This document shows, in pieces, positions 591 to 49,225 of a stretch of 64,000 nt of DNA. The DNA comes from Heterodontus francisci (lineage: Eukaryota), in the NCBI RefSeq assembly GCF_036365525.1, contig NC_090406.1, positions 12,824,254 through 12,888,253 on the forward strand, read 5' to 3'. Position numbers and translations under genes: made by a program. Position 1 is the first letter of the stretch, and the number at the start of each line of letters is the position of its first letter. The notes below the pieces were generated by a model. That model had not been told where the DNA came from. It made no database searches and saw only the letters and a program-made list of their open reading frames with translations.

Positions 591-1713
591 CAGTTACTAA
601 GGCTGTTGGTGGGTGCCAGGTGAGTTTAGCCTTGTTCAAGAGAGGGGAGCTTTTTAAACATCTAGATATTTAGATGAGCAGTTGAAATGCCATAGCATAC
701 AAGGATACGGACCAAGTGCTGGAAAATGGGATTAGAATAGATAGGTGCTTGATGGCCAGCATGGACACAATGGGCCAAAGGGCCTGTTTCTGTGATCTAT
801 AAGTAAGCCTCTATGACTTTAAGTACTTAAACTCAAAAGAAAGTGCACCAAAGTACAAGTTGACCCAGGTTTATAAAGTATTATAATTTAAATTTTGGTG
901 TTGGGGGAGGACCATAATTACTAACAAAATGACTCCTGACAACGCAGTGGCCCGCTGACGTCATCAGCGCGCTCCAAGATGCACATATGCACAAACGGTC
1001 TGTTGCCGCTCGCTGAGATGCTGCACATGAGCAGCCTATGTCTTGCCTTGCCAGGACAAACAGGCGCATGTGCAGAAAAATGATCTCCACCACCCCCCCC
1101 TCTCGGCCACTCACTGCTCGTTCCTTCCCCCCGCTCTCCGGCTGCTTGCTCTGCGCTCCCCCTCTCCCCTCCAGACGCTAGATCTAGGCTGCGCCACTTC
1201 CTTCCTCTCGGCCACTCGTTCCGCCCGAAGAAGCAAAGCGTGCCGGAGAGTGGGATGGTGGGGGGTGCGGGGAGTGAGAGGCTGGAGAGATGGCACTGAA
1301 ACCTCACAGAATTACGGAGGGTGTGCAACATTGTCAGAGGTGCTGTCCTGATGAGACCGTGTATGAAACATGTCCATTGCGAGCTGTCCGGGGTTGAAGT
1401 TGTTTTTCTGTGATAAATTGAACAGCGCCATCTTTAATCCTGGCAGCAGCCTTAACGTCGCAGAAAGCGACGTTTAAGTGGATGAGGCTGTATTTGCGCA
1501 TGTGCTAGTGCAGCTCCACCTAGTGGTTGCGTTGTACTAGCAAACGCAGCCAATTACTGATCCATTTGAAAAGGGGTTCTTCAACCCAAAACAGACCCCA
1601 TTGCACCGGCTCTGAGCCAGGTTAATGTACGCATGTGCACTGGATCATCCGGGTTGACCTTTGACCCAGCCTCCAAATCCCGCGATATTTGCCGCATCGG
1701 AAACAAGACTGAT

Positions 1714-1720
1714 CCTTTTT
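1714..1720 (+). promoter_or_regulatory. 5'TOP / TCT-type initiator pyrimidine tract (likely rps15 TSS)
   Basis: CCTTTTT about 20 nt upstream of the exon 1 ATG, typical of ribosomal protein genes. Confidence 0.75.
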
Positions 1721-1737
1721 AGCGAGAGCGGGTGAAG

Positions 1738-1740
1738 ATG
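1738..1740 (+). CDS. rps15: 40S ribosomal protein S15 (uS19), coding part of exon 1 (ATG only)
   Basis: AAG ATG|gtgggt donor directly after the TOP tract; exon 2 starts in phase 0 with no Met of its own. Confidence 0.9.
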
Positions 1741-2443
1741 GTGGGTGTTGGTAGATGGCGGTGCTGAGAGAATGTGATACAATCATTGTGAATCCGCTCT
1801 CAGATTAACACCACGGTTGCTATATCGCTGATAGTATTATAGACCGGGGTTTAAACTATGATGGTCGCTGTTTATTTTTTTTGACAATTTTACTTTTATA
1901 CTAGTAGATGGGGGTGACAATTTCTGTAGGCCTCAGGCTGTTTAATAAAGTGGCCGTAGCAATTACTGTGTAACATTGGTAAAGAGTTATTTTAAAATTG
2001 GCCCTGGTACGTTTTTATTGGGCGTGTGGTGGGTTAAGAGCCGGTGGCTTTAGCGCCTTTTGTCAGAACCAGCTTGCTTTGAAATTGTGAATTTTAACGC
2101 TGGGATCAAGCCCCTGTGTCTGGACTCCCCGAAGCAACATCAAACAGGCTGCACCGGGCGGATTCTGGGAACTTTGTGTAATACTTAAAGAAATATAATC
2201 GTGCTTTCAACAGCGAGCTGTTAAGGGGAGTGAGAATTGATTGCAAGAGCAATTTTTTAACACAGGAAATTGGGAGAGTTGATAGTTTTAATAGATGTAT
2301 TTTACAACATACTATTCAATAATTCCTTCTAGAAAAGTATATTTCCCCCAATGAACCAACCAAATGACTTTTCCCCCCCTAATGTGGTTTAAACTAGGAC
2401 AAGGGGTGTCTATGTCTCTGTAATTTTATATGTATTTTAATAG

Positions 2444-2532
2444 GCTGACCAAGTAGAACAGAAGAAGAAAAGGACTTTCAGGAAATTTACCTACAGAGGT
2501 GTTGATCTGGATCAGCTCCTTGATATGTCTTA
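2444..2532 (+). CDS. rps15: rps15 exon 2
   Basis: taatag|GCT...TCT TA|gtaagt; encodes ADQVEQKKKRTFRKFTYRGVDLDQLLDMS(Y), matching the vertebrate RPS15 N-terminus. Confidence 0.98.
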
Positions 2533-3004
2533 GTAAGTTGCATTGTGTTAAATAATTTCTGTTGTGTCAGATTTATAGAGGAATACGCTGTGGCCATGCT
2601 ATGTTTTTGGTTTCTAGAAAATGTTCAGAATGCAGTGTGCTAAGTTGATTTTATGTGTTTCAACTTTGCTGGTGTGAAACAATATGATTTCAAATTTTGA
2701 GGATGGGGGACTGTTGAGATCACTGCAGCCTCCCTGTCCTAACTTTGGTTACATTGTGACTTTTACCCAAGGAGATCATTGCTATTCCAGTTGAAAAAAA
2801 GACTTGCATTTATGTAGTGTTTTTTTACAACCACTGGATGTCTCAAAGCACTTTGCAGCCAATTAAAGCAGCACTTTTAAAGTGTAGTCACTGTCGTAAT
2901 GTAGGAAAAGCAGCTTCCGATTTGCAAACAAAAAGCTCCCACAAACAGCATTGTGGGAAAGACCAGATAATCTGTTCTGGTGATATTAATTGAGGGATAA
3001 ATAT

Positions 3005-3620
3005 TTTTTTTTTTATTTAGAGATACAGCACTGAAACAGGCCCTTCGGCCCACTGAGTCTGTGCCGACCATCAACCACCCATTTATACTTTCTTTGGCCT
3101 CCTTATCTCGAGAGACAATGGGTAAGCGCCTGGAGGAGGTCAGTGGTGTGTGGAGCAGCGCCTGGAGTGGCTATAAAGGCCAATTCTAGAGTGACAGGCT
3201 CTTCCGCAGGTGCTGCAGAAAAATTTGATTGTCGGGGCTGTTACATAGTTGGCTCTTCCCTTGCGCCTCTGTCTTTTTTCCTGCCAACTGCTAAGTCTCT
3301 TCGATTCGCCACACTTTAGCCCCGCCTTTATGGCTGTGCGCCAGCTCTGGCGAACGCTGGCCATTTATACTAATACCACATTAATCCCATATTCCTACCA
3401 CATCCCCTCAATTCCCCTACCACTACTTACACTAGGGGTAGTTTACAATGGCCAATTTACCTATCAACCTGCAAGTCTTTGGCTCTGGGAGGAAACCGGA
3501 GCACCTGGCAGAAACCCACGCGGTCACAGGGAGAACTTGCAAACTCCGCACAGGCAGTACCCAGAACTGAACCCGGGTCGCTGGAGCTGGGAGGCTGCGG
3601 TGCTAACCACTGTGCTGCCC
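3005..3620 (-). mobile_element. tRNA-derived V-SINE (HE1-like), interrupted by an RTE fragment
   Basis: V-domain (ggagtttgcaagttctccctgtg...ggtttcctccca) and A/B-box head on - strand; same family as 13886-14231 and 32030-32725. Confidence 0.85.
3090..3360 (-). mobile_element. RTE LINE 3' end, 5'-truncated
   Basis: Encodes CSTCGRACHSRIGLYSHSRRC, near-identical to the end of the 16.9-19.0 kb copy; 11-bp TSD CCATTTATACT at 3079-3089 and 3361-3371. Confidence 0.92.
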
Positions 3621-4796
3621 AGGACAATGGAGATAACCCCCCCGCTTTTCAAAATAGTGCCATGGGATCATCTTCGTTCACCGGAGAGAGCAGATGGGGC
3701 CTTGGTTTAAAGTCTCATCCGAAAGAGGGCATCTCTGTCAGTACAGCACTCCCTCAGTACTGCACTGGAGTGTCAGCCTTGATGTTTGTGCTCAAATCTT
3801 GGAGTGGCGCTTGAACCCAGAATCTTCTCAGAGGTGAGAGTGCTGCCAACTGAGTCACGGGTGACACAATAAAAATGTTTAATGATGTGTGCATATACAG
3901 AAATAAAGTTAACAAATAGAGAAATCTATATGGACAGGAATGTCAGTTGAAAATGAAATGTATATGCTGGTATTCATTGCTATCTATGGAGTCTTGTGCA
4001 CTTTTGTGGTAGTGTGAAATAATCTGAGATGTTTGAGAAATATACCAGGCATGTTATTTTCTGAGCTATGACGTGCTGATTATAACTTGTTTGCATCTGC
4101 CTCAGTTATATGTTGCTGCTGTGTAGTGAATTCAGAGTTTTGAAATTACAGCAGCATTTTGTATTTAAAAGAACAGCTGCTTGTACAATTGTTCAGAGAT
4201 CCCATTGGTCATTGTGTCTAACTGTAGACCTTCCTGGATAGACATGACGGCAGACTGAAAACTAACTAACATCCTGGCCAATGCCTGAAAAAATATGTTT
4301 GTGGGAGATTTGAAGTTGTGCACCAGACAGATGTATGTGCAATTTTCCTTCTCACCGGAGAGAAAAGGCTAGCTACTGTGGAAAATCAAGAATGTGCACC
4401 CTTATTCTATGACTTCGTAGTGTAGCATATGTCTTTATTTTCCTCTCAAAGGCTGTGAGAGCACTAGAAACAAAGCTTGAAGAAAATTCAACAGTTTGCT
4501 GTCTGCAAGATGACTCCTCCAGTGAAGTGGTCCCTCAGTACCGCACTGAAATGTTAGACTACATGCTCACATTCCGGACTGGGGCTTGAACCCACAGCTT
4601 TCTATCTCCGATGAATGCTGCCATCTGATCCTGGCTCTGAGTACCAATATATGCTGTGCTTCTAAGGTGTTATATAAGTCTGGTTTTAGTGAATTTGAAA
4701 ATGCTTGAGTATCCAGACCTGCCTAATCCTATTGCAAACCGCAGTAAACCTCCATTCTGCTTCAGTGAGCCAATAGTTTGGAATTGAAAAGTCTGA

Positions 4797-5057
<261 letters not shown>

Positions 5058-5444
5058 TGAATTTTCCCATGACCTTCTAGTAATTTTTAAAATATTTTGT
5101 ATGTACAGAATACAACAGCAAAGGCCTCTTTTATGATCTTTGAGCTCATGCTGCATTATATTGGTATGCATTACCACTAGGGACAGTGATGTAATCATAG
5201 AATGGTACAGCACAGGAGGCCATTTGGCCCATTGTGCCTGTGCTGCTGTTCGGAGCTATTCAATTAATCCTACCCCTGCTCTTTTCCCATAGCCCTGTAT
5301 TTTTTTTTCCATTCAAGTATTTATCTAAACAGTGAAGCCAACTATGAACTTCCTATGTTGCTAGAGCTAACTCAACATAAAAAGGAAGCACTAATCAGAG
5401 CCAGAGTGAACCTGAGGCAATAAAATGTACCCCATTGGCTAGTT

Positions 5445-6540
5445 ATAGAAAAGGGAGGATGAGCTGCCTGGCTTTTAGATATGTGGCACAGGAAAGAATT
5501 AAAGGGACAGTAGCAGCGTGGATACGAAATTGGTGGAGTGACAAGAAACAGACTAGATTTTGGAAGGTTTTTTTAGGTAGGAAAGGTTTGTAGAGGAGTT
5601 CCCCAGAGGTCAGCGTTGGGGCCCTTGCTCTTCCTGATGTATATTCATGACCTAGACCTTGGTGTACAGAGCACAATTTCAAAATTTGCTGATGATACAA
5701 AACTTGGAACAATTGTGAATTGTAAGGAGGATAGTGTAGAACTTCAAAAGGACATAGACAAGTTGGTGGAATGGGCGGACAGGTGACAGATGAAGTTCAA
5801 TGTGAAGAAATGTAAAGTGATTCATTTTGGTAGGAAGAACATGGTGAAACAATATAACATAAAGGGTGCAAGAGCAGAGGACTTGGGAGGTATATGTGCA
5901 TGAGTCATTGAAGGTGGCAGGACAGGTTTCGAGAGCAGTTAATAAAGCATACAGTGTCCTAGGCTTTATTAATGGGAGCATAGAGTACAAGAGCAAGGCG
6001 GTTATGTTCAATTTGTATAAGACACTAGTTCAGCCTCCACTGGTGAATTGTGTCCAGTTGTGGGTGCCGCACTTTAGGAAAGATGTGAAGGCATTGGAGA
6101 GAGTGCAGAATGGTTCCAGGGATGAGGAACTTCGGGTATGAAGACAGATTGGAGAAGTTGGGACTGTTTTCCATGGAGAAGAGAAAGCTGAGAGGAGATT
6201 TGATGGTATTCAAAGTCATGAGGGTCTGGACAGAGTAGATGGGGAAAAACTGTTCCTACTTGTGAAAAGATTGAGAACGAAAGGGTACAGGTTTAAAGTG
6301 ATTGGCAAAAGCAACATGAGGAAAAACTTCTTCACGCGGCGAGTGGTTAGGATCTGGAATGCACTGCCTGAGAGTGTGGTGGAGGCAGGTTCAGTTGAGG
6401 CATTCAAAAGGGAATTAGACTGTTATTTGAAAAGGAAGAATGCAGGGTTGCGGGGGAATGGCATTAGGTGAATTGCTCATTTGGAGAGCCGGTGCGGACG
6501 ATGGGCCAAATGGCGGCCTCCTGTGCTGTAACAATTCTGA
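5445..6540 (+). mobile_element. CR1 LINE, degenerate 3' part (RT domain remnant)
   Basis: SKFADDTKL, YKTLVQPPLVNCVQLWVPHFRKDV and RKNFFTRRVVRIWNALP in broken frames. Confidence 0.9.
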
Positions 6541-7109
6541 GAAGAGAGTAAAAAGAACTAAGCATGTGTTTCTGTATTGCATTGCTATGTACATGTGGCA
6601 TTGGTTCTTGTGTTGCAGGTGGCAAACGTAAATGTTTTGCTTTGTTGACGTCTTCGGGTCTTCTGACATCAGGAAAGAGCTACAGACTGAAACCTAAGCT
6701 TGCCATGGCATATCCCTAATTATTGGCACAAGAATCTGAAATATACCCACAGCATTAAAAAAAAATCTTGTGCTTAGATTTCTGAATGGATGTTTCCATT
6801 TTCCAGTGTGATGGACTTTATTCAGTAAAAAATCTTTATCTATATAATGAACTTTCTGCCTCTGGACTGCCATCTTCAGATGGCTAAATGTTGTATATCT
6901 GATGCCATTTGCACTGAAAGTTTCCACGAAGAGCCTGCAAATGATTGTGATTCATTCAAGCCATTTGCTACTAAGCCCTGACCACCACATGCACTTCACT
7001 CTTATAACTGGACTGTAAATGCAATGGGTAAGAGTAATTCTGATCCCTAAAATGGCTGCCTGTGTGAATCGAAGCAGATCAAATTAGAAATTTATATAAT
7101 GTCATCATT

Positions 7110-7480
7110 TACCTAAACATTCACTTGCTCCACCACCAGTGTACCCTGGCTGCAGCATGTACTTTCTGCAGGATGCACTGCAGCATCTCTCCAAGGCTTC
7201 TTTGGCTGCATCTCCCAAACCTTTGCCAACCAGCATGACATGGGAGCACCAATGCCTCCAAGTTTCCCTCCACATTGCACATTATTCCCAATGTGGATAT
7301 ATATTGTCATTCCTTCAACGTTGCTGGTTCAAAATCGTGGGACTCCATAGCTAACAGCACTGGGAGAATCCTCACACAGACTGTGGCAGTTGAAGATGAA
7401 TGCTCACCATGACTTTGTCAAGGACAACTTGGGATATGCAATAAATGCTGAACTTGCTAGTGATATCTACATCCTGAGAA
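7110..7480 (+). mobile_element. CR1/L2-superclade LINE 3' fragment
   Basis: Homologous to 52160-52770 (aacattcac...atgcactgcagca...caataaatgct). Confidence 0.7.
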
Positions 7481-8070
7481 TGTTTTTTTTTTAAAAAAAA
7501 AGTCCCCTTAACCCAATTTTCTTTGCCTCCTGTGCTTATAGACAGCATGCTTATGATTTGCCCCAAGCCATTTGCCAGTCTATACCAGTGGGTTTTAAAA
7601 TCTCCCATTTGGTATATTGGAATGATTCTGCAAACCAGTGCCAGTGTAGCTATCCAAAAGAAAGCTGCAGTTCATTGCACAAAAATATTTTTTTTATTGG
7701 TATATACAAAGTGAAATGCTAATTCAGGAAATCTGATAATGGATAGACTGAATCTGACCAATGTGGAATTCTCTGCTGCAAACTATTATAAATCCACATA
7801 TACTTTAAAAGGGGGAAAAAAAGTAGTTGGTGGTTAAAAAGGTATGGAGAGTGGGAGTAGTCCTTTTGGATGATGGAGAAAAACATAGGTGCAGGTTTGA
7901 TGGGGTGCCTGCCCTGTTTCTTTGAGCATTCTATTTCTGGGATGGAGGGAGCAGCCTAGGTGATTGCCTCTTGCTCAATTATAACATAAGCAAAGATACT
8001 ATTGTGTGGAGCTGTTGCTGATGTAATTCTCTGATCAGTGTGGTATAGTGTGTAGGAGCTTTCTGCCTAC

Positions 8071-8816
8071 TGTCAGGTAAAGCCCCCAGCTACCAAGACT
8101 GAGGCACCCATTATTTCGCCAAATGAACGTTAGAACTTAAAAGTGCAAGCTCCTGACTGGAAAGACCTTTTTGCATATCAACAGACGGTGTTGAAACAAT
8201 GGGGATCCAGTAGTTGCTTCCCCAATATGCAGAAGTGGTCAGACCAGTTTTAGTCACATGACTAACTGGCTGTTGCAGAGAGTTTGAACTACCAACAAAC
8301 GATTTTGAAGAGAACGCGTGTGCTCATGGACTGAGAACATCTCTCCTGTCTGCCAGCCTTCATCTCTTCCCATGGAACTGAATCTTATGAAAACACACAC
8401 AACTCGCGAAGAAGGTTTTCTCCGTGAACAAGGTTTTAAGAAGACTACTGGGCCCCAACGAAACTCAAGACCATATCTTCAATGAAGGACTAGGGAGTGC
8501 TCGAGAAACAGTAACATGATATTGCCTCAAACTGTTCTACTTGTCTTTTCTGCCCCTATCTGCATGTTTATATCGCATGCTAGCATGGGCGCGTTGTATA
8601 TCCATAGGCGTGAACCGTATTGGAGTTTAAGGTTTAATAAAGTTCATCTTTCTTCTTTAAAGCAAAGACAGCCTGTTTGTGCTCATTTCTTTGTCATATA
8701 ATTGGAAAGCTGTGAACGAGGATTCACGAAGGGGGAGTTCGAAACACTGTTAAAACTTCAACCCTGTTACAATAAGACCAGGTGAAGATAGATGCCTTTC
8801 TCACCTGGTCATATCA
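8071..8816 (+). mobile_element. Solo LTR in rps15 intron 3
   Basis: TG...CA termini, 4-bp TSD CTAC (8067-8070 and 8817-8820), internal AATAAA at about 8636; homologous to the inverted copy at 55953-56828. Confidence 0.88.
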
Positions 8817-10012
8817 CTACAAAAAATTGGAATCCCTCTTGATCTTTGCTGGTTGTAATTAGTGTGGAGCCCTGGCAAGTGGCTTTTAACACCAGTGATG
8901 TGCATTACTGTATAAAACCTATTTCCTGATTTACTTATGTGGCATAACAGGCTGTTAAGTATCGGTTTAGCTAATACATGTGGATAAGTAACTTGTGTAT
9001 TCCACAATACAAGTAATAGTAACTGAAAACAAGTCAATTCATTAATACTAATATATTAAACCCCACATATTCAATAAAACTCAACTACATTGTGTTTATC
9101 AGAAGCAGAGGTAAATAAGGGATGGCAGGACCTTTCCATAACTTCATTTTAAATTTACACAGCTACTGTTTGAAATTTAAATCTCATCCTTGCCAGCCAT
9201 TTTGATCCCTGCAGTCAGCAGGAAACTTATCAACTTCAGCTGGTTCTGTACTGAGTAACATGGATCAGCATCTTGGGCGCTGAACAAAAAGCCCTGTTCC
9301 TTCATTGGCGAAAGAGATATTTGCATTCTAGTGCAGAGTGTCCTCTGGTGAAAGCATTTTCTCTGGCTGTTAGGCTGCTGGTTTAAAAGGAAAAGGGTTT
9401 GTTTTCGCCCTCTGCAAAGGTAAGTAAAAGTTTCAAAATCCATAAAATGTAATGTCAGTCAGAGCAGATAGGCAGTAAAGCAGTTGACCTTGTTAATCCA
9501 GAACAAGTTAATTGCATTCAGTTGGGAGAAACCTAACTAGTCACTGTCTATTCATGACTGCACAATTTTTACCTATTTTGTGCGATGTTTTATTTGTCAC
9601 ATATAAACAACATGACTGGCTTTTACATTTCTGCTCCTTCTGCTTTCCCTCGTGTCTAGCACATGGTGCCATATTATTTATAAATTCAATATAATTATAG
9701 CTGTTCTAAAGACCGGATGACTTGTGGATTCTCTCCTTTGAAAAGTGGGGGAGATTATGAGCAGCAATTTAATTTTGTTTTGTTGGACATTGGAAAGGTG
9801 AAGGCATGTATACAAATCACAATTCTATTTGGTACACTAGGATCTTGATATTGAAACAGTTTGCCTGTTAACTTGATTCATCCCTTTTTAATGGAAAGAT
9901 TACTAAATGTTAGTCTAGTCCAGCTGCATCCTGAATACTCCGTTATAGTTGCAGAGCTTAATTTACGTTGCATGCAATTCTTTGATTTTGACCTGTTAGT
10001 TTATTTGGTTAA

Positions 10013-10150
<138 letters not shown>

Positions 10151-10176
10151 ACAGTTTACGATGGAAAGGCTGTGTA

Positions 10177-10182
10177 AATAAA
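10177..10182 (+). terminator. rps15 polyadenylation signal
   Basis: AATAAA 27 nt after the stop codon, followed by GT/T-rich sequence. Confidence 0.9.
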
Positions 10183-11519
10183 ACTCATCCCCAGTACAGT
10201 TTGACTTGGAGTGCTTATTCTTCAGATTTAGTAGCTTTCCCAACTCCTCGCAATACTATGCAATGGGCTAAAATCTAAAGATTTTGTTTGTATGAATGTA
10301 TTTATCATGCATTGTCAGTTTTCCCTATGCATAGAATTGATGCAAAAATTTAAACACATATTTTGCCTTAATCATTTTAGATCTTTTTATGCTTTTGAGA
10401 AGTTCAGGGCAACTTGCAAAATTTAAATCGTTCTGAAACGTGTTTCAGGGCATTTATGCAAACTGGACCAGGCTGATGACTTCTCAGCTTTGTCTTTCAC
10501 ATTGGGTGAGTTGGGCATTCAGCCAGCAGCCCAATTCTGTCCAGCTACATTGAACAGATCTGTAGGGGGTAGATTTAATGAATTGGTGAGATTAGGTGGA
10601 TGTGCTGACATCAACTTCAGAATTCCTTGCGTTCTGTTCTGTCTTGGAGAGCTCTGCATTAGGATGCTAATTCGTAAAATCTTTGAAATAGTAAAAATTG
10701 CTGGGTAAAGGAATTTGCCTTGAGTGGGAAAAATTGGGAGGAGAACAAAATAGTTGAAAGAAACAATGTACAATAGGGATTGGCACTGAGGAATGTTGAA
10801 AGGTGAAAGCTGTAGTCTGAGCTTGGACCCAAACAGTTGGGTGCAGTATATTCTAAATGGCATTTTCTTGTTCCAACTTAATTCATTGCATAGCCTCACC
10901 AAATGGTGGAAGTAATTCAGATCCAGTTGATCTGACCTCTCTTCCAGACAGGATGTCATCTTGGTCACTTCAAAGGTTGATGACATTCCCAAGAGTAGAT
11001 TGTGATTTCTTTTGGGGGTTGAGTGCTGGTGGGCGGTGGGAGCAGGGTTGAAGAAAACTGGAGGTGTGGGGATCCTGTCCAGCCCTATCCAGTCAATTTG
11101 AATTTCCTCATTCCTTGTGTAGCAGTTTTTTCTACTTTACACAGGAACTTAGAAAGGATGCTGGGTTTCTCGTGGTGCTGTTTATTGGTGGTTGTGACCC
11201 TGTAGCTGATGAAGTTCTGGCAAAAAAAGTCAGTCGGTGGTTAAGTTATAAAACTTTAATGCCTTCATACAAAACAATTTACAAGCAGAGTGGGAACAAA
11301 CAGTATAATAAACGTAGGTGTGCGTTCTCATCCTAACTAAAAGAAAGAAAATACTTAAATACTTGCTCAGCAAGTTGGAATTTTTCCCTCCTTTATTGGC
11401 CTTTTTACTGCACCTTCTAAGGTAATCTCTAGTGTAATTCTTGATATGTCTATTCAGTACAGTGTGTCAGCAACTCGTCTGCAGCATTCTTTTGAACGCA
11501 CTAACTGCATTATTTTCAT

Positions 11520-14793: not shown

Positions 14794-16030
14794 TTTTTTT
14801 TTTTAGAATTAGAATATTACAGCGCAGTACAGGCCCTTCGGCCCTCGATGTTGCGCCGATCATCTGACCTACACTATTCCATTTTCATCCATATGTCTAT
14901 CCAATGACCACTTAAATGCCCTTAAAGTTGGCGAGTCTACTACTGTTGCAGGCAGGGCGTTCCACGTCCCTACTACTCTCTGTGTAAAGAAACTACCTCT
15001 GACATCTGTCCTATATCTTTCACCCCTCAACTTAAAGCTATGTCCCCTCGTGTTTGCCATCCTCATCCGAGGAAAAAGACTCTCACTATCCATCCTATCT
15101 AACCCTCTGATTATCTTGTATGTCTCTATTAAGTCACCTCTCCTCCTCCTTCTCTCTAACGAAAACAACCCCAAGTCTCTCAGCCTTTCCTCGTAAGACC
15201 TTCCTTCCATACCAGGCAACATCCTAGTAAATCTTCTCTGCACCCTTTCCAAAGCTTCCACATCCTTCCTATAATGCGGTGACCAGAACTGCACGCAATA
15301 CTCCAGGTGCGGCCTCACCAGAGTTTTGTACAGCTGCATCATGACCCCGTGGCTCTGAAACTCGATCCCCCTACTAATAAAGGCTAACACACCATATGCC
15401 TTCTTAACAGCCCTATTAACCTGGGTAGCAACTTTCAGGGATTTATGGACCTGGATACCAAGATCTCTCTGCTCATCTACACTACCAAGAATCTTCCCAT
15501 TAGCCCAGTACTCTGCATTGCTGTTACTCCTTCCAAAGTGAATCACCTCACACTTCTCCGCATTAAACTCCATTTGCCATCTCTCAGCCCAGCTCTGCAG
15601 CCTATCTATGTCCCTCTGTACCCTACAACACCCTTCGACACTATCCACAACTCCACCGACCTTCGTGTCATCCGCAAATTTACTAACCCACCCTTCTACA
15701 CCCTCATCCAGGTCGTTTATAAAAATGACAAACAGCAGTGGCCACAAAACAGAACCTTGCGGTACACCACTAGTAACTAAACTCCAGGATGAACATTTGC
15801 CATCAACCACCACCCTCTGTCTTCTTTCAGCTAGCCAATTTCTGATCCAAAGCTCTAAATCACCTTCAACCCCATACTTCCGTATTTTCTGCAATAGCCT
15901 ACCGTGGGGAACCTTATCAAACGCCTTACTGAAATCCATATACACCACATCCACGGCTTTACCCTCATCCACCTGTTTGGTCACCTTCTCGAAAAACTCT
16001 AAGGTTTGTGAGGCACGACCTACCTTTCAC
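14794..16030 (-). mobile_element. Young 5'-truncated CR1 LINE with an uninterrupted RT ORF (14869-15984, 371 aa)
   Basis: DFSKAFD, GVPQGSVL and FADD RT motifs; CR1 C-terminus; TTCTAA/poly(A) tail at 14794-14815. Confidence 0.95.
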
Positions 16031-16914: not shown

Positions 16915-18960
16915 CATTCTTTTGGGCCTCCTTATCTCGAGAGACAATGGATACGCGCCTGGAGGTGGTCAGTGGTTTGTGAAGCAGCGCCTGGAGTGGC
17001 TATAAAGGCCAATTCTGGAGTGACAGGCTCTTCCACAGGTGCTGCAGAGAAATTTGTTTGTTGGGGCTGTTGCACAGTTGGCTCTCCCCTTGCGCCTCTG
17101 TCTTTTTTCCTGCCAACTACTAAGTCTCTTCGACTCGCCACAATTTAGCCCTGTCTTTATGGCTGCCCGCCAGCTCTGGCGAATGCTGGCAACTGACTCC
17201 CACGACTTGTGATCAATGTCACACGATTTCATGTCGCGTTTGCAGACGTCTTTATAACGGAGACATGGACGGCCGGTGGGTCTGATACCAGTGGCGAGCT
17301 CGCTGTACAATGTGTCTTTGGGGATCCTGCCATCTTCCATGCGGCTCACGTGGCCAAGCCATCTCAAGCGCCGCTGACTCAGTAGTGTGTATAAGCTGGG
17401 GATGTTGGCCGCTTCAAGGACTTCTGTGTTGGAGATATAGTCCTGCCACCTGATGCCAAGTATTCTCCGAAGGCAGCGAAGATGGAATGAATTGAGACGT
17501 CGCTCTTGGCTGGCATACGTTGTCCAGGCCTCGCTGCCGTAGAGCAAGGTACTGAGGACACAGGCCTGATACACTCGGACTTTTGTGTTCCGTGTCAGTG
17601 CGCCATTTTCCCACACTCTCTTGGCCAGTCTGAACATAGCAGTGGAAGCCTTACCCATGCGCTTGTTGATTTCTGCATCTAGAGACAGGTTACTGGTGAT
17701 AGTTGAGCCTAGGTAGGTGAACTCTTGAACCACTTCCAGAGCGTGGTCGCCAATATTGATGGATGGAGCATTTCTGACATCCTGCCCCATGATGTTCGTT
17801 TTCTTGAGGCTGATGGTTAGGCCAAATTCATTGCAGGCAGACGCAAACCTGTCGATGAGACTCTGCAGGCATTCTTCAGTGTGAGATGTTAAAGCAGCAT
17901 CGTCAGCAAAGAGGAGTTCTCTGATGAGGACTTTCCGTACTTTGGACTTCGCTCTTAGACGGGCAAGGTTGAACAACCTGCCCCCTGATCTTGTGTGGAG
18001 GAAAATTCCTTCTTCAGAGGATTTGAACGCATGTGAAAGCAGCAGGGAGAAGAAAATCCCAAAAAGTGTGGGTGCGAGAACACAGCCCTGTTTCACACCA
18101 CTCAGGATAGGAAAGGGCTCTGATGAGGAGCCACCATGTTGAATTGTGCCTTTCATATTGTCATGGAATGAGGTGATGATACTTAGTAGCTTTGGTGGAC
18201 ATCCGATCTTTTCTAGTAGTCTGAAGAGACCACGTCTGCTGACGAGGTCAAAGGCTTTGGTGAGATCAATGAAAGCAATGTAGAGGGGCATCTGTTGTTC
18301 ACGGCATTTCTCCTGTATCTGACGAAGGGAGAACAGCATGTCAATAGTCGATCTCTCTGCACGAAAGCCACACTGTGCCTCAGGGTAGACGCGCTCGGCC
18401 AGCTTCTGGAGCCTGTTCAGAGCGACTCGAGCAAAGACTTTCCCCACTATGCTGAGCAGGGAGATTCCACGGTAGTTGTTGCAGTCACCGCGGTCACCTT
18501 TGTTTTTATAGAGGGTGATGATGTTGGCATCGCGCATGTCCTGGGGTACTGCTCCCTCGTCCCAGCACAGGCATAGCAGTTCATGTAGTGCTGAGAGTAT
18601 AGCAGGCTTGGCACTCTTGATTATTTCAGGGGTAATGCTGTCCTTCCCAGGGGCTTTTCCGCTGGCTAGGGAATCAATGGCATCACTGAGTTCCGATTTG
18701 GTTGGCTGTATGTCCAGCTCATCCATGACTGGTAGAGGCTGGGCTGCATTGAGGGCAGTCTCAGTGACAGCATTCTCCCTGGAGTACAGTTCTAGGTAGT
18801 GCTCAACCCAGCGGTCCATCTGTTTGCGTTGGTCAGTGATTATGTCCCCCGATTTAGATTTGAGGGGGGTGATCTTCTTGATGGTTGGCCCAAGAGCTCT
18901 CTTCATGCCATCATACATTCCTCTGATGTTTCCGGTGTCTGAGGCCAGCTGAATATGACC
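16915..18960 (-). mobile_element. Young 5'-truncated RTE-clade LINE with an intact RT ORF of about 660 aa (stop at 16969)
   Basis: NYRGISLLS, QCGFR, FIDLTKAFD, GVKQGCVLAP, LLFADD, RRLRWLGHV and C-terminal CxxC..H..C motifs; no stops or frameshifts; endonuclease domain missing. Confidence 0.96.
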
Positions 18961-18996
18961 AACTGAATTACCCACCAACTAAATACAATGTCTTGA

Positions 18997-19002
18997 TTTA
19001 TT
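18997..19002 (-). terminator. Putative poly(A) signal of the connexin gene
   Basis: AATAAA on - strand about 150 nt past the stop codon, followed by GU-rich tttagttggtgggt. Confidence 0.65.
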
Positions 19003-19153
19003 AGCTAGTAATGTATCAGCTATTGGACTAATTAGTATAATGAAGACAACCTTGCTCACTGTCTAAACAAATATAAAACTTACACTGTAAATGATATCAA
19101 ATATTAAATAATGCACACGTGACATTTCATATACAGCTTTGGAAAGCACAACT

Positions 19154-19711
19154 TTACCAACTGAAGAATACATCTCTTACCCCTATCAATAGAGATGCAA
19201 ATGAACAAGTGTACATGAACATCACAAACACATTTTTCTGCTGACTTTTCAGCATAGTGCAGAAGACTGTCTTCTCACAGGGAGTTATAGCACATTTAAA
19301 TGTGCGTTGTCTCAGTACATTTGGGTACAGCATATGATGCCAAAAAAGGAAGATTGCTTCAATAAATATTTTGCCAAGCATGCTGGGAAAGCTGATTTTA
19401 AAGTTGTGCCTCAACTGTCTCGGGCTGCCTCCGTTATACAAAGAGTTTGCCAGCGCTAGGGTGAAAATGCATACAATTTGCAGTGTGAACAAAGTAAAGG
19501 GTGACAAAGGTGAAAGTTCGGTATAGCATTGGTGGTGACAGCCCACCTGGGTGGAATTACAGGTCAGATCTTGAAGGTCATCTTCCCAAACGGTATTTGT
19601 GCTGATGATAACTGCGAAGAGACGAATGGCGAAGAATGAGGCCAAACCGTTTCTGGTGCAAGAGGAGACATGGGATCCAGTGCCACTCAGCAAAGCCAAG
19701 GCCTGCTCCAT
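19154..19711 (-). CDS. Highly divergent minimal connexin (gap-junction family protein), 185 aa
   Basis: E1 VWEDDLQDLTC-x6-C-x3-CY and E2 C-x4-C-x5-C...KNVF..FM, matching connexin cysteine spacing; four hydrophobic segments; N-terminal LLSG as in beta connexins; ATG in strong Kozak context (GTTATGG); splice acceptor (pyrimidine tract...tatag) ends at 19724. Confidence 0.88.
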   Translation of the reverse strand: MEQALALLSGTGSHVSSCTRNGLASFFAIRLFAVIISTNTVWEDDLQDLTCNSTQVGCHHQCYTELSPLSPFTLFTLQIVCIFTLALANSLYNGGSPRQLRHNFKISFPSMLGKIFIEAIFLFWHHMLYPNVLRQRTFKCAITPCEKTVFCTMLKSQQKNVFVMFMYTCSFASLLIGVRDVFFSW

Positions 19712-19924
19712 AACCAAGCCCACCTATAGTTCCATTTAGACAAAGTGATGAGGGAAAAAGAACACAGGTGGATTAGCACTGGCACCTTCCTAATTACTGC
19801 ACTGATATTCCTGTACAGACACAGAAGCCTTACAATTTAATATTCTCTACGTAATCCATTAAGTTCAGGTCAGTTCATCCTGTCTGTCGCACCTTGCAAA
19901 TAAACACTTGTTCTTATTGATACA

Positions 19925-36200: not shown

Positions 36201-36239
36201 TGATGAACCCTTAGCGTTTGCTAAGGAGACCCAGTCATG

Positions 36240-37930
36240 TTTTCACTATAGAGGATACAAGTAACATCCCAGAATTAGCTGTAAGTCAGGAAATGGAAGG
36301 GAGGGAGGAACTCAAGAAAATTACAATCACCAGGGAAGTGGGATTGAACAAATTGTTGGAGCTGCGGGTTGGCAAGTCCTCGAGTCCTGATAGACATCAT
36401 CCTAGGGTACTAAAAGAAGTGACTAGTGAGATAGTTGATGCGTCAGTTTTAATTTTCCAAAATTCTTTAGATTCAGGGAAGGTTCCGTTAGATTGGAAAA
36501 AGGTGAATGTAACTCTTTTATTCAAAAAGGGAGGGAGACAGAAAGCAGGAAACTACAGGCCAGTTAGCTTAACATCTGTCTTAGGGAAAATATTAGAAGC
36601 TCTTATTAAAGACGTTATAGCAGGGCATTTAGAAAAATTGAACGTAATCAGGCAGAGTCAACATGGTTTTGTGACAGGGAAATCATGTTTAACCAATTTA
36701 TTGGAGTTCTTTGAGGGGTTTACATGTGCTGTGGATAAAGGGAAACCAGTGGATGTGTTGAACATAGATTTCCAGAAGACATTTGAAAAGGTGCCACTTC
36801 AAAGGTTGTTGCAGAAAATAAAAGCTCACTGTGTAGGGGGTAACATATTGGCATGGATAGAAGATTGGTCAGCTAACAGGAAACAGAGAGTAGGCATTAA
36901 TGGGTCATTTTCTGGTTGGCAAGATTTAACAAGTGGCGTGCCACGGGGATCTGTGTTGGGGCCTCAACTTTTTACAATTTATTTAAATGACTTAGATTGA
37001 GGGACCAAAGGTATGTTTACTAAATTTGCTGATGACACAAAGATAGGTAGGAAAGTAACTTGTGAAGAGGACATAAGGGGGCTACGAAGGGATATAGATA
37101 GGTTAAGTGAGTGGGCAAAGACCTGGCAAATGGAATATAATGTAGGAAAGTGTGAAATTGTCCACTTTGGCAGGAAGAATAACAAAGAAGCAGATTAACT
37201 ACATGGTGAGTGATTGCAGAGTTCTGAGATGCAGAGGGATCTGGGTGTCCTAGTGCATGAATTGCAAAAGGTTAGTATCCAGGTACAGCACATAATTAGG
37301 AAAGCTAATAGAATGTTATCGTTTATCGTGAGGGGAATTGAAATCAAAAGTAAGGAGGTTATGCTTCAGCTATACAGGGCATTGATGAGGCCATATCTGG
37401 CGTACTGTGTACAGTACTGGTCTCCTTGTTTAAGGAAGGATGGAAATGCATTGGAGGCAGTTCAGAGAAGGTTTACTAGACTGTTACCTAGAATGGGCGG
37501 GCTGTCTTACAAGGAAGGATTGATACAGGCTAGGCTTGTATCTGCTGGAATTTAGAAGAGTAAGAGGCAACTTGATTGAAACAAATAAGATCCTGAGGGG
37601 TCTTAACAGGGTGGATGTGGAAAGCATGTTTCCCCTTGTGGGAGAATCTAGAACCAGGTGTCACTGTTTAAAAATAAGGGATCACTCATTTAAGACAGAG
37701 ATGAGGAGAAATTTTTTCTGAGGGTTGTGAGTCTCTTCCTCAAAAGGCAATGGAAGCAGAGTCTTTGAATATTTTTAAGGCAGAGGTAGATAGATTCTTG
37801 ATAAGCAAGGGGTTATTGGGGGTAGGTGGAAATGTGGAGTAATCAGTTCTGCCAAAACTTATTGAATGGCGGAACAGGCTCGAGGGGCCGAGTGGCCTAC
37901 TCCTGCTCCTAGTTCATATGTCCGTATGTT
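36240..37930 (+). mobile_element. CR1 LINE, 5'-truncated, RT domain with stops and frameshifts
   Basis: NYRPVSLTS, QHGF, GVPRGSVLGP and KFADDTKIG motifs, CR1 3' UTR. Confidence 0.95.
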
Positions 37931-46567: not shown

Positions 46568-47490
46568 ATTGTCTTTGAGCTTCAAGGCTCACACTACCTT
46601 CCAATTAACGCCATATTCCAATGCTTTAGGTTTCTGAAACAGTTTCCACTACTATTTCTACAGTTTTGTTTTCTACATTCCTATATTTTTGAAGATTTCA
46701 GATAGTTATCTCAAAGAGATGAATTTGATTCTCCGACTTGCTCACTGGCCAATGTGATGGTGAGCGATACAGACTAGGAGGTTAGGCCCGTGTTGAATTA
46801 GCTGACCTCCGCTGAGGTTGGTAGTAGGGACGCTACACTTGCCCTCAGTGGCCCTTGTGTGGGCAGGGGCAAAATAAATCAACCAAGTTGTTTGCTGTTG
46901 GGATGCATCCTGAGAGAATTCCAAGAGTTTTATGATGTGTTTATATTGCATCTAAAGGAAGTAAGTCTGGGACGTGATGAGCCTGTGGGAAGATTCTGAG
47001 CATCGGCTGTTACGCAACTCTGGCTAAAAAGTGTGAGGGTGGGGTCTTAGAGTGAAGACAAGGTCACAATCAGTTGCCTAGTTTGCTGGCAACTGGGGAG
47101 GTTGAATTTCCAAGGGGTTTTCCCGGTGTTACTTTGGTGGAAAGCCTGGAATAACAATGTTTATCCTGGGGTTTTGGCGGCTGTTCCGTCAGAGTTATGT
47201 CAAAGAACACCCCCACCTTCCAGACATCTATGTGTTTTTCCTGCTGCCACGTGAATAATGACCACTTGAATAAGATACTTTAAGGTGGAAGCATAGGCCA
47301 ATAAGAGGAGAGGAAGGGAGGACATTGATAAGGCCCATCAGCTACAAGCATCTTGAAGTCCATTCCTACCCGGGATCTGAAACTATTTTCCAATTATCCA
47401 TTGATATAAGTTGCTAAAGTCATTATGTTGTCTATTAATGGGAAAAAATATGTTAGAACTGAATGGAATGTGCAAATAATGAAATTACAA

Positions 47491-49225
47491 TGAATTGAAC
47501 AGGTATTTTGCATCGGTCTTCACTATAGATGATACAAGGAACATCCCAGAATTAGCTGAAAGTCAGGAAATGGAAGGGAGGGGGGAACTCAAGAAAATTA
47601 CAATCACCAGGGAAGTGGTACTGAACAAATTATTGGAGCTGCGGGCTGATAAGTCCCCAGATCCCGATGGACATCATCCTAGGGTCTTAAAAGAAGTGGC
47701 TAGTGAGATAGTTGATGCGTTACTTTTAATTTTCCAAAATTCCCGAGATTCAGGGAAGGTTCCGCTAGACTGGAAAATAGCAAATGTAACTCCTTTATTC
47801 CAAAAGGGAGGGAGACCGAAAGCAGGAAGCTACAGGCCAGTTAGCTTAACATCTGTCTTAGGGAAAATGTTAGAAGCTATTATTAAAGACTATTCTATTA
47901 TAGCAGGGTACTTAGAAAAATTGAAGGTAATCAGGCAGAATCAACATGGTTTTGTTAAAGGGAAATCATGTTTAACCAATTTATTGGAGTTCTTTGAGGG
48001 AGTTACATGTGCTGTGGATGAAGGGGAACCGGTGGATGTATTGTACTTAGATTTCCAGAAGGCATTTGATAAGGTGCCACATCAAAGGTTGTTGCAAAAA
48101 ATAAAAGCGCATGGTGTACGATACAACATATTGGCATGGATAGAAGATCGGCTAGCTAACAGGAAACAGAGAGTAGGCATTAATGGGTCATTTTCTGGTT
48201 GGCAAGATTTAACGAGTGGTGTGCCACAGGGATCTGTGCTGGGGCCTCAACCTTTTACAATTTATATAAATGACTTAAATGAAGGAACCGAAGGTATGTT
48301 TGCTAAATTTGCTGTGACACAAAGATAGGTAGGAAAGTAGGTTGTGAAGAGGACATAAGGGGGCTACAAAGGGATATAGGTAGGTTAGGTGGGTGGGCAA
48401 AAATCTGGCAGATGGAGTATAATATGGGAAAATGCGAAGTTGTCCATTTTGGCAGGAAGAATAACAAAGAAGCATATTATCTAAATGGTGAAAGATTGCG
48501 GAGCTCTGAGATGCAGAGGGGTCTGGATGTCCTAGTGCATGAATCACAAAAGGTTAATATGCAGGTACAGCACGTAATTAGGAAAGCTAATAGAATGTTA
48601 TTGTTTATCATGAGGGGAATTGAATACAAAAGTAGGGAGGTTATGCTTCAGCTATACAGGGCATTGGTGAGACCACATCTGGAGTACTGTGTACAGTACT
48701 GGTCCCCTTATTTAAGGAAGGATGTAAATGCGTTGGAAGTAGTACAGAGAAGGTTTACTGGACTAATACCTGGAATGCACGGGCTGTCTTATGAGGAAAG
48801 GTTGGACAGGTTAGGCTTGTATCTGCTGGAATTTAGAAGAGTAAGAGGCGACTTGATTGAAACATATAAGTTCCTGAGGGGTCTTGACAGGGTGGATGTG
48901 GAAAGGATGTTTCCCCTTGTGGGAGAATCTAGAACCAGGTGTCACTGTTTAAAAATAAGGGGTCACCCATTTAAGACAGAGATGAGGAGAAATTTTTTCT
49001 CTCAGAGGGAGGTGAGTCTTTGGAATTCTCTTCCTCAAAAGGCGGTGGAAGCAGAGTCTTTGAATATTTTTAAGGCAGAGGTAGATAGATTCTTGATAAG
49101 CAAGGGGTTATCGGGGGGTAGGTGGAAATGTGGAGAAATAAGTTCAGCCATGAACTTATTGAATGGCAGAGCAGGCTCGAGTGGCCGAGTGGCCTACTCC
49201 TGCTCCTAATTCATATGTTTGTATG
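47491..49225 (+). mobile_element. CR1 LINE, 5'-truncated, one frameshift in the RT domain
   Basis: ORFs 47495-48328 and 48412-49209 carry the CR1 RT motifs; close paralogue of 36240-37930. Confidence 0.95.

Follow-up and report, generated by a model that had tools for sequence, protein, structure and literature searches.

Glycosylation is the usual explanation for pannexins staying unpaired. Pannexin docking is held to be hindered by extracellular glycans, and the extracellular sequons found in all chordate innexins are thought to have this effect (PMC8769644); Panx1 and some of the innexins with sequons have been reported to make junctions (PMC9171361, PMC8769644). Connexins are described as not glycosylated (PMC5983588). 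The docking contacts of Cx26 are N54, Q57, N176 and D179, of which Q57 is absolutely conserved in human connexins, and D46, E47, R75, R184 and E187 make up its calcium-sensing network (PMC5414816). Substitution R75W abolishes the conductance of Cx26 and W77R blocks its assembly (PMC13256757). The precedent for a connexin that forms hemichannels only is Cx31.3 (PMC11117596). Among divergent members of the family, gjz1/Cx26.3, which maps to zebrafish chromosome 12, has been described as an outgroup connexin conserved in mammals (Lukowicz-Bedford et al. 2022, PMC9073686), and an elephant-shark connexin was reported in the supplement of Mikalsen et al. 2021 as highly divergent and without chondrichthyan relatives, and was omitted (PMC7914757). 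Here we describe a connexin gene in a 64,000-nucleotide stretch of the horn shark Heterodontus francisci (contig NC_090406.1; the window, to whose positions coordinates refer unless another contig is named).

The connexin gene and its locus

The gene is a single coding exon of 185 codons followed by a TAA stop on the minus strand (19154..19711, read from 19711 to 19154), and its product of 21.0 kDa was characterized by translation, Pfam, AlphaFold2 and Foldseek. An earlier note, made from the sequence letters alone, had read the same ORF and had placed it in unique sequence, and the connexin DNA is indeed single-copy in the H. francisci genome. It is located between rps15 and an APC-family gene. 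The proximity to rps15 that the note had proposed is borne out by a four-exon rps15 on the plus strand (1706..10196; exons at about 1706-1741, 2443-2532, 4817-5051 and 10035-10196), recognized by a PF00203 match and by blastn of an intronless copy. The two genes are convergent, and the last rps15 exon ends about 9 kb from the connexin stop codon. The APC-repeat gene, which by human gene order we take to be apc2, is about 170 kb further on the same contig, and the rps15-APC locus of the H. francisci genome contains no canonical connexin. Further rps15-family matches, some with stops, are found elsewhere in the genome (L024-L031); one of them, L024, is the intronless copy and shares about 95% identity with the window's exons.

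A splice-acceptor-like site (19724..19765, minus strand) is recognizable by sequence upstream of the connexin ATG as a pyrimidine tract with an AG 12 bases before the start codon; at the position of this AG, where H. francisci has TAG, the gene models of orthologues have a Gln codon (CAG). The putative acceptor would imply an upstream non-coding exon. About 150 bases after the stop, the sole AATAAA/ATTAAA hexamer in 18900-19154 is a candidate polyadenylation signal (AATAAA, 18997..19002, minus strand), weak on its own. The window also contains reverse-transcriptase (LINE) fragments at 14869-16026, 16969-18978, 36215-37000 and 47483-48328, of which the 669-codon one, on the same strand as the connexin, starts about 20 bases past the candidate poly(A) signal.

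Connexin identity and fold

The protein scores 99.1 bits (E 4e-28) on the Pfam Connexin model (PF00029), whose cut-off is 31.3, and its closest solved relatives by sequence are Cx26 and Cx32 (E 1e-22). The AlphaFold2 model (pLDDT 92.3, pTM 0.85), computed from an alignment of 77 rows with canonical connexins among them, comprises an N-terminal helix, four long helices, two extracellular loops and a cytoplasmic loop of about 8-20 residues. Compared with solved structures by Foldseek, it reaches TM 0.85-0.89 to Cx32/Cx26, the value of 0.89 being to Cx32. An alignment of 11 shark sequences alone gave a poor model (pLDDT 48.3), which was not used. Both cysteine signatures on which the note had relied are present, C51-x6-C58-x3-C62 in E1 (19526..19561, minus strand) and C140-x4-C145-x5-C151 in E2 (19259..19294, minus strand), the latter with K and F at the positions of docking residues N176 and D179; the landmarks R30, VWED, LQ, S110/K114/E118 and F162..FM were likewise found as described. 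The gene is confirmed as a real minimal connexin, one that appears to lie outside the named orthogroups. At 21.0 kDa the protein is not below every known connexin in size, since zebrafish gje1b is listed at 20.3 kDa.

An orthogroup from chondrichthyans to squamates

The gene had been thought to be lineage-restricted, which is not the case, as its orthologues run from chondrichthyans to squamates. The first search returned 10 shark orthologues with 60-67% identity and lengths of 192-217 aa, and profile searches added two batoids, a chimaera, sturgeons, lungfish, a caecilian, axolotl, frog, lizards, turtles and snakes. In all, 42 sequences from chimaera, rays, sharks, sturgeon, lungfish, amphibians, turtles and squamates share the diagnostic changes, and reading frames are intact from chimaera through snakes. 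A competing-profile test split the family from all other matches collected, with scores inflated by the family rows in the profile. A tree was built from 19 family sequences (out of 42), 25 canonical paralogues of H. francisci and 3 other rows, and in it the 19 make up one side of a branch (100/100). The stem of the family measures 1.72 changes per column and the supported inner splits match the species tree. The clade joins the tree among the beta genes, with no starred support for that position, and no named GJB orthogroup is its sister. The H. francisci end branch is 0.21 versus 0.16-0.41 in the other sharks. Identity of the H. francisci protein is 20-29% to any canonical paralogue and 26-35% to reptile members, and the family appears to evolve fast.

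RefSeq labels for the members are inconsistent, ranging from GJB1- to GJB7-like. Contigs bearing many of the family matches are small, which fits microchromosomes and is no proof of them. Indirect hints of transcription come from a caecilian and a catshark, in each of which one protein has several transcript accessions, and from a second elephant-shark record, presumably cDNA-derived, that differs from the first at three residues. No teleost, bird, crocodilian or mammal member is among the matches listed, which is weak evidence because the searches are too insensitive to prove loss: the profile search covered the best 150 of 561 matches with a shark-only profile, and the second search scored the best 8000 candidates and failed to recover 8 of the 16 rows in its own query. 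Judging from sequence, we regard the family as an unnamed, ancient, jawed-vertebrate orthogroup, a description of which was not found in full-text literature searches whose scope mostly left out subscription journals. It is now hidden in the vertebrate connexin inventory under GJB1- to GJB7-like names and adds one orthogroup to that inventory, and it can be studied in laboratory animals through its members in frog, axolotl, lizard and catshark.

Residues were tallied in the 42 family sequences versus the 25 canonical paralogues of the H. francisci genome, using Cx26 numbering. The three E1 cysteines, and five cysteines overall, are present in 42/42 members and all six in 36/42. The first E2 Cys is replaced by Phe in the other 6, which are snake sequences (P0187, P0188, P0190, P0192, P0193 and P0194) that have thereby lost one of three disulfides and have kept the E1 sequon described below. 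R32 (40/42), E147 (42/42), K188 (40/42), K/R22 (41/42) and K/R143 (42/42) are conserved, and W44, D46, E/D47, N54, P70, S72, Q80 and F191 are also retained family-wide, as is the acidic E1 vestibule (D46, E/D47, D50) along with the N-terminal helix. The scaffold residues of the connexin fold are retained by the family. The note was right in listing W3, W24, H73, R75, W77, P87 and RPTE as lost; these losses are family-wide and not peculiar to the H. francisci copy, and the family has also lost Q48, P58, D179 and R184 (R75, P87, D179 and R184 in 0/42 each). Family-specific replacements are themselves conserved, namely P73 in 40/42, F77 in 39/42, D50 in 40/42 and T42 in 37/42. The family would represent a nearly minimal scaffold that manages in another way without residues that Cx26 needs to work.

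Cytoplasmic loop, tail and frameshift

The short cytoplasmic loop remarked on in the note is real and common to every family member: the Q80-E147 span (TM2-TM3) has 34-51 residues in the family versus 54-115 in the canonical paralogues. The H. francisci loop is without 8-9 codons, including a Trp found in ten other sharks, and its protein departs at 6 columns that are invariant in the other ten sharks, the second highest number of 11 (range 0-7).

The stop about five residues after TM4 is true of the H. francisci copy but is not a family trait, as tails range from 5 to 49 residues in the family (versus 22-286 in the canonical paralogues) and a frameshift is present here. Tblastn of orthologue tails and comparison of codons place the loss of two bases in a short run of GA where TM4 ends (19166..19180, minus strand), leading to the early stop, because the frame from 19176 matches the catshark tail; the orphaned ancestral tail, 18 codons out of frame (19120..19176, minus strand), is 67% identical to the tail of catshark P0006 (E 0.015). 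P0006, P0007, P0009 and P0010 all have a tail of 17 residues, and their stop position reads TCA here, which suggests that the shift in the H. francisci copy is real and old. Most orthologues continue for 8-31 residues past the E209 position. The shifted frame supplies an Asp, also acidic, at this position and completes the TM4 helix. A bamboo-shark record (P0005/P0198) appears, from its protein only, to have the same shifted ending; the tail has 5 residues in Narcine and 6 in Rhinoraja, and the ray protein P0012 (tail 5) ends at the same position as that of H. francisci. Given the range of 5-49 residues in the family, the tail looks dispensable.

A sequon on the docking asparagine

The most telling feature of the family, missed in the earlier reading, is a sequon combined with the loss of docking residues. 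N52-S53-T54 (19550..19558, minus strand) is by motif an N-glycosylation sequon at the docking Asn N54 of Cx26. This N-x-S/T is found in 37/42 family members, that is, in every member with the Asn (57/66 family sequences with near-duplicates included), in 0/25 canonical paralogues and in 1/146 E1 motifs among non-family representatives. The +2 residue is Thr in 26 and Ser in 11, and the middle residue is never Pro. Four of the five Asn-less members are also without Ser/Thr at +2 (Fisher p 4e-5, with independence overstated as about three lineages are involved), and positions 57 and 58 beside the sequon vary among nine or ten residues. The alternation of Thr and Ser, the variable neighbours and the joint decay with the Asn form the pattern that selection on a glycosylation site would be expected to leave. 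The docking residue Q57 is present in 11/42 members, mostly retained in sharks, P58 in 2/42, N176 in 1/42 and D179 in 0/42, with nine different residues at the D179 position across the family; the H. francisci copy keeps N54 and Q57, not N176 or D179.

In the model, the sequon Asn follows TM1 by about 12 residues, within a loop of some 30, and adjoins a disulfide Cys; some 12 residues from the membrane is near the lower limit for glycosylation. Glycosylation of Cx32 has reportedly been engineered in two studies. E1 and E2 of five lizard sequences are devoid of a sequon of any kind. The lizards P0055, P0179, P0181, P0182 and P0184 (agamid, anguid, lacertid), which are without the sequon Asn, are natural controls for the glycosylation hypothesis. 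Full-text literature searches, with subscription journals mostly outside their scope, returned no naturally glycosylated connexin, and the conserved sequon on the docking asparagine appears to be new here. A connexin lineage with this Asn in a sequon all the way from chimaera to snakes would naturally test the rule that glycosylation keeps channels unpaired, and a single Asn-to-Gln change would ask whether the glycan alone decides between junction and hemichannel.

Proposed function

We propose, as the best of the readings considered, that the gene product is an N-glycosylated, non-docking hemichannel with pannexin-like behaviour, a proposal that we consider evenly balanced between right and wrong. 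It builds on what the sequences and the model show: a connexin fold, an orthogroup, a short loop, a conserved sequon, and docking and calcium-gate residues that have been lost. The connexin would be expressed and assembled into a hexamer with an open pore, each four-helix subunit carrying an N-glycan on its E1 docking Asn. Six glycans would then crown the hexamer and block docking, so that glycosylation of this Asn would lead to an unpaired hemichannel and not to cell coupling, and, in the manner of pannexins, the hemichannel would pass ions or small metabolites between the cell and its surroundings. The minimal loop and dispensable tail predict slight control by phosphorylation or scaffolds, and the channel would be gated by its N-terminal helix together with the acidic vestibule of E1 (D46, E/D47, D50). 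The frameshift costs the H. francisci copy nothing but its tail and is probably tolerated. Against the hemichannel stand the membrane-near position of the Asn beside a disulfide, the sequon-less lizards, the coupling by Panx1 and innexins, the pore-residue losses and the 6 private departures of the H. francisci copy.

Since the family has lost R75, W77, P87 and R184, a homomeric pore cannot be taken for granted. An alternative, which we regard as unlikely though worth serious weight, is a modulatory or non-conducting subunit that would form no pore alone and would co-assemble with beta connexins and prevent docking, or else a glycosylated tetraspan membrane protein. The R75/R184/E187 salt-bridge network, W3, W24, W77 and P87 are lost family-wide, equivalent single changes disable Cx26 (PMC13256757), and fast evolution of the family (26-35% identity of H. 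francisci to reptiles) points in the same direction. However, the conserved replacements P73, F77, D50 and T42 fit a rebuilt interface, and the N-terminal helix and acidic vestibule are retained.

It is decidedly less probable that the protein forms genuine gap junctions by a docking code of its own, the sequon being unused or its glycan compatible with pairing. All six cysteines are kept in 36/42 members, most sharks have Q57, compensatory docking contacts are thought possible (PMC5414816), and glycosylated innexins and Panx1 are able to couple cells (PMC8769644, PMC9171361). N54 is conserved in canonical connexins anyway, but this leaves the +2 Ser/Thr unexplained, which is absent in 25/25 canonical paralogues and decays together with the Asn, and the docking positions are variable rather than fixed, as the nine residues at the D179 position illustrate. 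That the family is functional with the H. francisci copy decaying, or that the frameshift is an assembly error, is possible and not favoured, indeed improbable: the frameshift, the loop deletion of 8-9 codons with its Trp and the 6 private departures are countered by intact helices, cysteines and sequon, by the Asp at the E209 position and an end coinciding with that of the Narcine protein, by the shifted ending shared with the bamboo-shark record (protein only), by TCA at the ancestral stop position, as expected of a real, old shift, and by an end branch (0.21) that is not long.

A second divergent connexin

A genome-wide Pfam search revealed another very divergent connexin, P0197, a single-exon protein of 221 aa (L071:1263-2087 = G000:C1104, about 831.3-832.1 kb, minus strand) with C-x7-C-x3-C in E1 and a sequon at the N54 position. 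The gene lies on an unplaced, GC- and repeat-rich contig that is possibly the MHC class III region, and about 5.5 kb downstream of the gene are exons for Sushi, VWA and trypsin, which is the factor B/C2 layout. P0197 is 17% identical to the rps15-linked connexin and falls outside the family clade, and a joint clade is not rejected (p-AU 0.295); two matching clusters in the ESM Atlas, of 100 and 94 members, are each nearer one of the two proteins. P0197 could be an orthologue of gjz1. Tentatively, and with more doubt than conviction, we envisage an ancient jawed-vertebrate class of N-glycosylated connexins without coupling that would have converged on the pannexin design, with two shark members, the rps15-linked gene and P0197, possibly an MHC-paralogous pair from whole-genome duplication; the rps15-linked gene would have persisted from chimaera to snakes, with apparent losses in teleosts, birds and mammals.

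Other connexin sightings include the teleost records P0018, P0021, P0032 and P0036 (teleosts named: Centroberyx, Seriola and Anabas), with two tandem connexin units per predicted protein of 363-459 aa; these may be connexins concatenated in nature or separate gene models that were fused. In the H. francisci genome, a broken connexin E2 fragment (L064, G000:C3) lies about 3 kb from a gja11-like gene, and an exon that we take to be GJE1-like (L062, G000:C13) is found on another contig.

Comparison with known systems

Cx32 (GJB1) and Cx26 (GJB2) are the best sequence and fold matches and share with the rps15-linked connexin the six-Cys spacing, a single coding exon behind an acceptor, and a short loop and tail. 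They differ in that the family is without W3, W24, R75, W77, P87, D179 and RPTE and has the N54 sequon. The chimaera member P0015 corresponds to the Callorhinchus 'gjb5-like' XM_007898730, the printed DNA start being matched by eye. The elephant-shark member was already in the supplement of Mikalsen et al. 2021 and was set aside there, its entry in that supplement giving no orthogroup, sequon or function (PMC7914757). Identity with gjb11, a chondrichthyan-specific beta gene, was rejected, since whale-shark gjb11 is canonical (MDW start, SHIRLW, RPTEK; tandem pair) (PMC7914757). As printed, gjb11 matches L055/L056 by eye, and these fall elsewhere in the tree.

Cx23/GJE1 has four extracellular cysteines, being without two of them, and several coding exons. 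Identity with it was rejected, as the H. francisci gene has six Cys and one coding exon; the two are alike in being divergent and similarly small, Cx23 having 20.3-23.9 kDa in zebrafish (PMC9073686). Cx31.3 (GJC3) is likewise a divergent connexin and forms hemichannels only (PMC11117596), whereas its E2 spacing is altered and it gives the weakest of the PDB matches. Zebrafish gjz1/Cx26.3 is, like the present family, a divergent GJB3-like outlier outside the named subfamilies, but it occurs in teleosts and mammals (PMC9073686), and none is named among the listed family matches, the two being compared by description only. We think it unlikely that gjz1 (ENSDARG00000086255) belongs to the family of the H. 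francisci gene; if it did, the orthogroup would be less novel and the novelty of the sequon would be unaffected.

Membership among the pannexins or innexins was rejected, as there is no Pfam PF00876 match and the fold likeness is weak, under the ESM Atlas naming bar. Pannexins have two cysteines per loop. They are unrelated in sequence (PF00876) and have long regulatory tails, whereas what they share with the rps15-linked connexin is a conserved extracellular sequon, carried in pannexins by a large-pore channel that is held to stay unpaired (PMC8769644).
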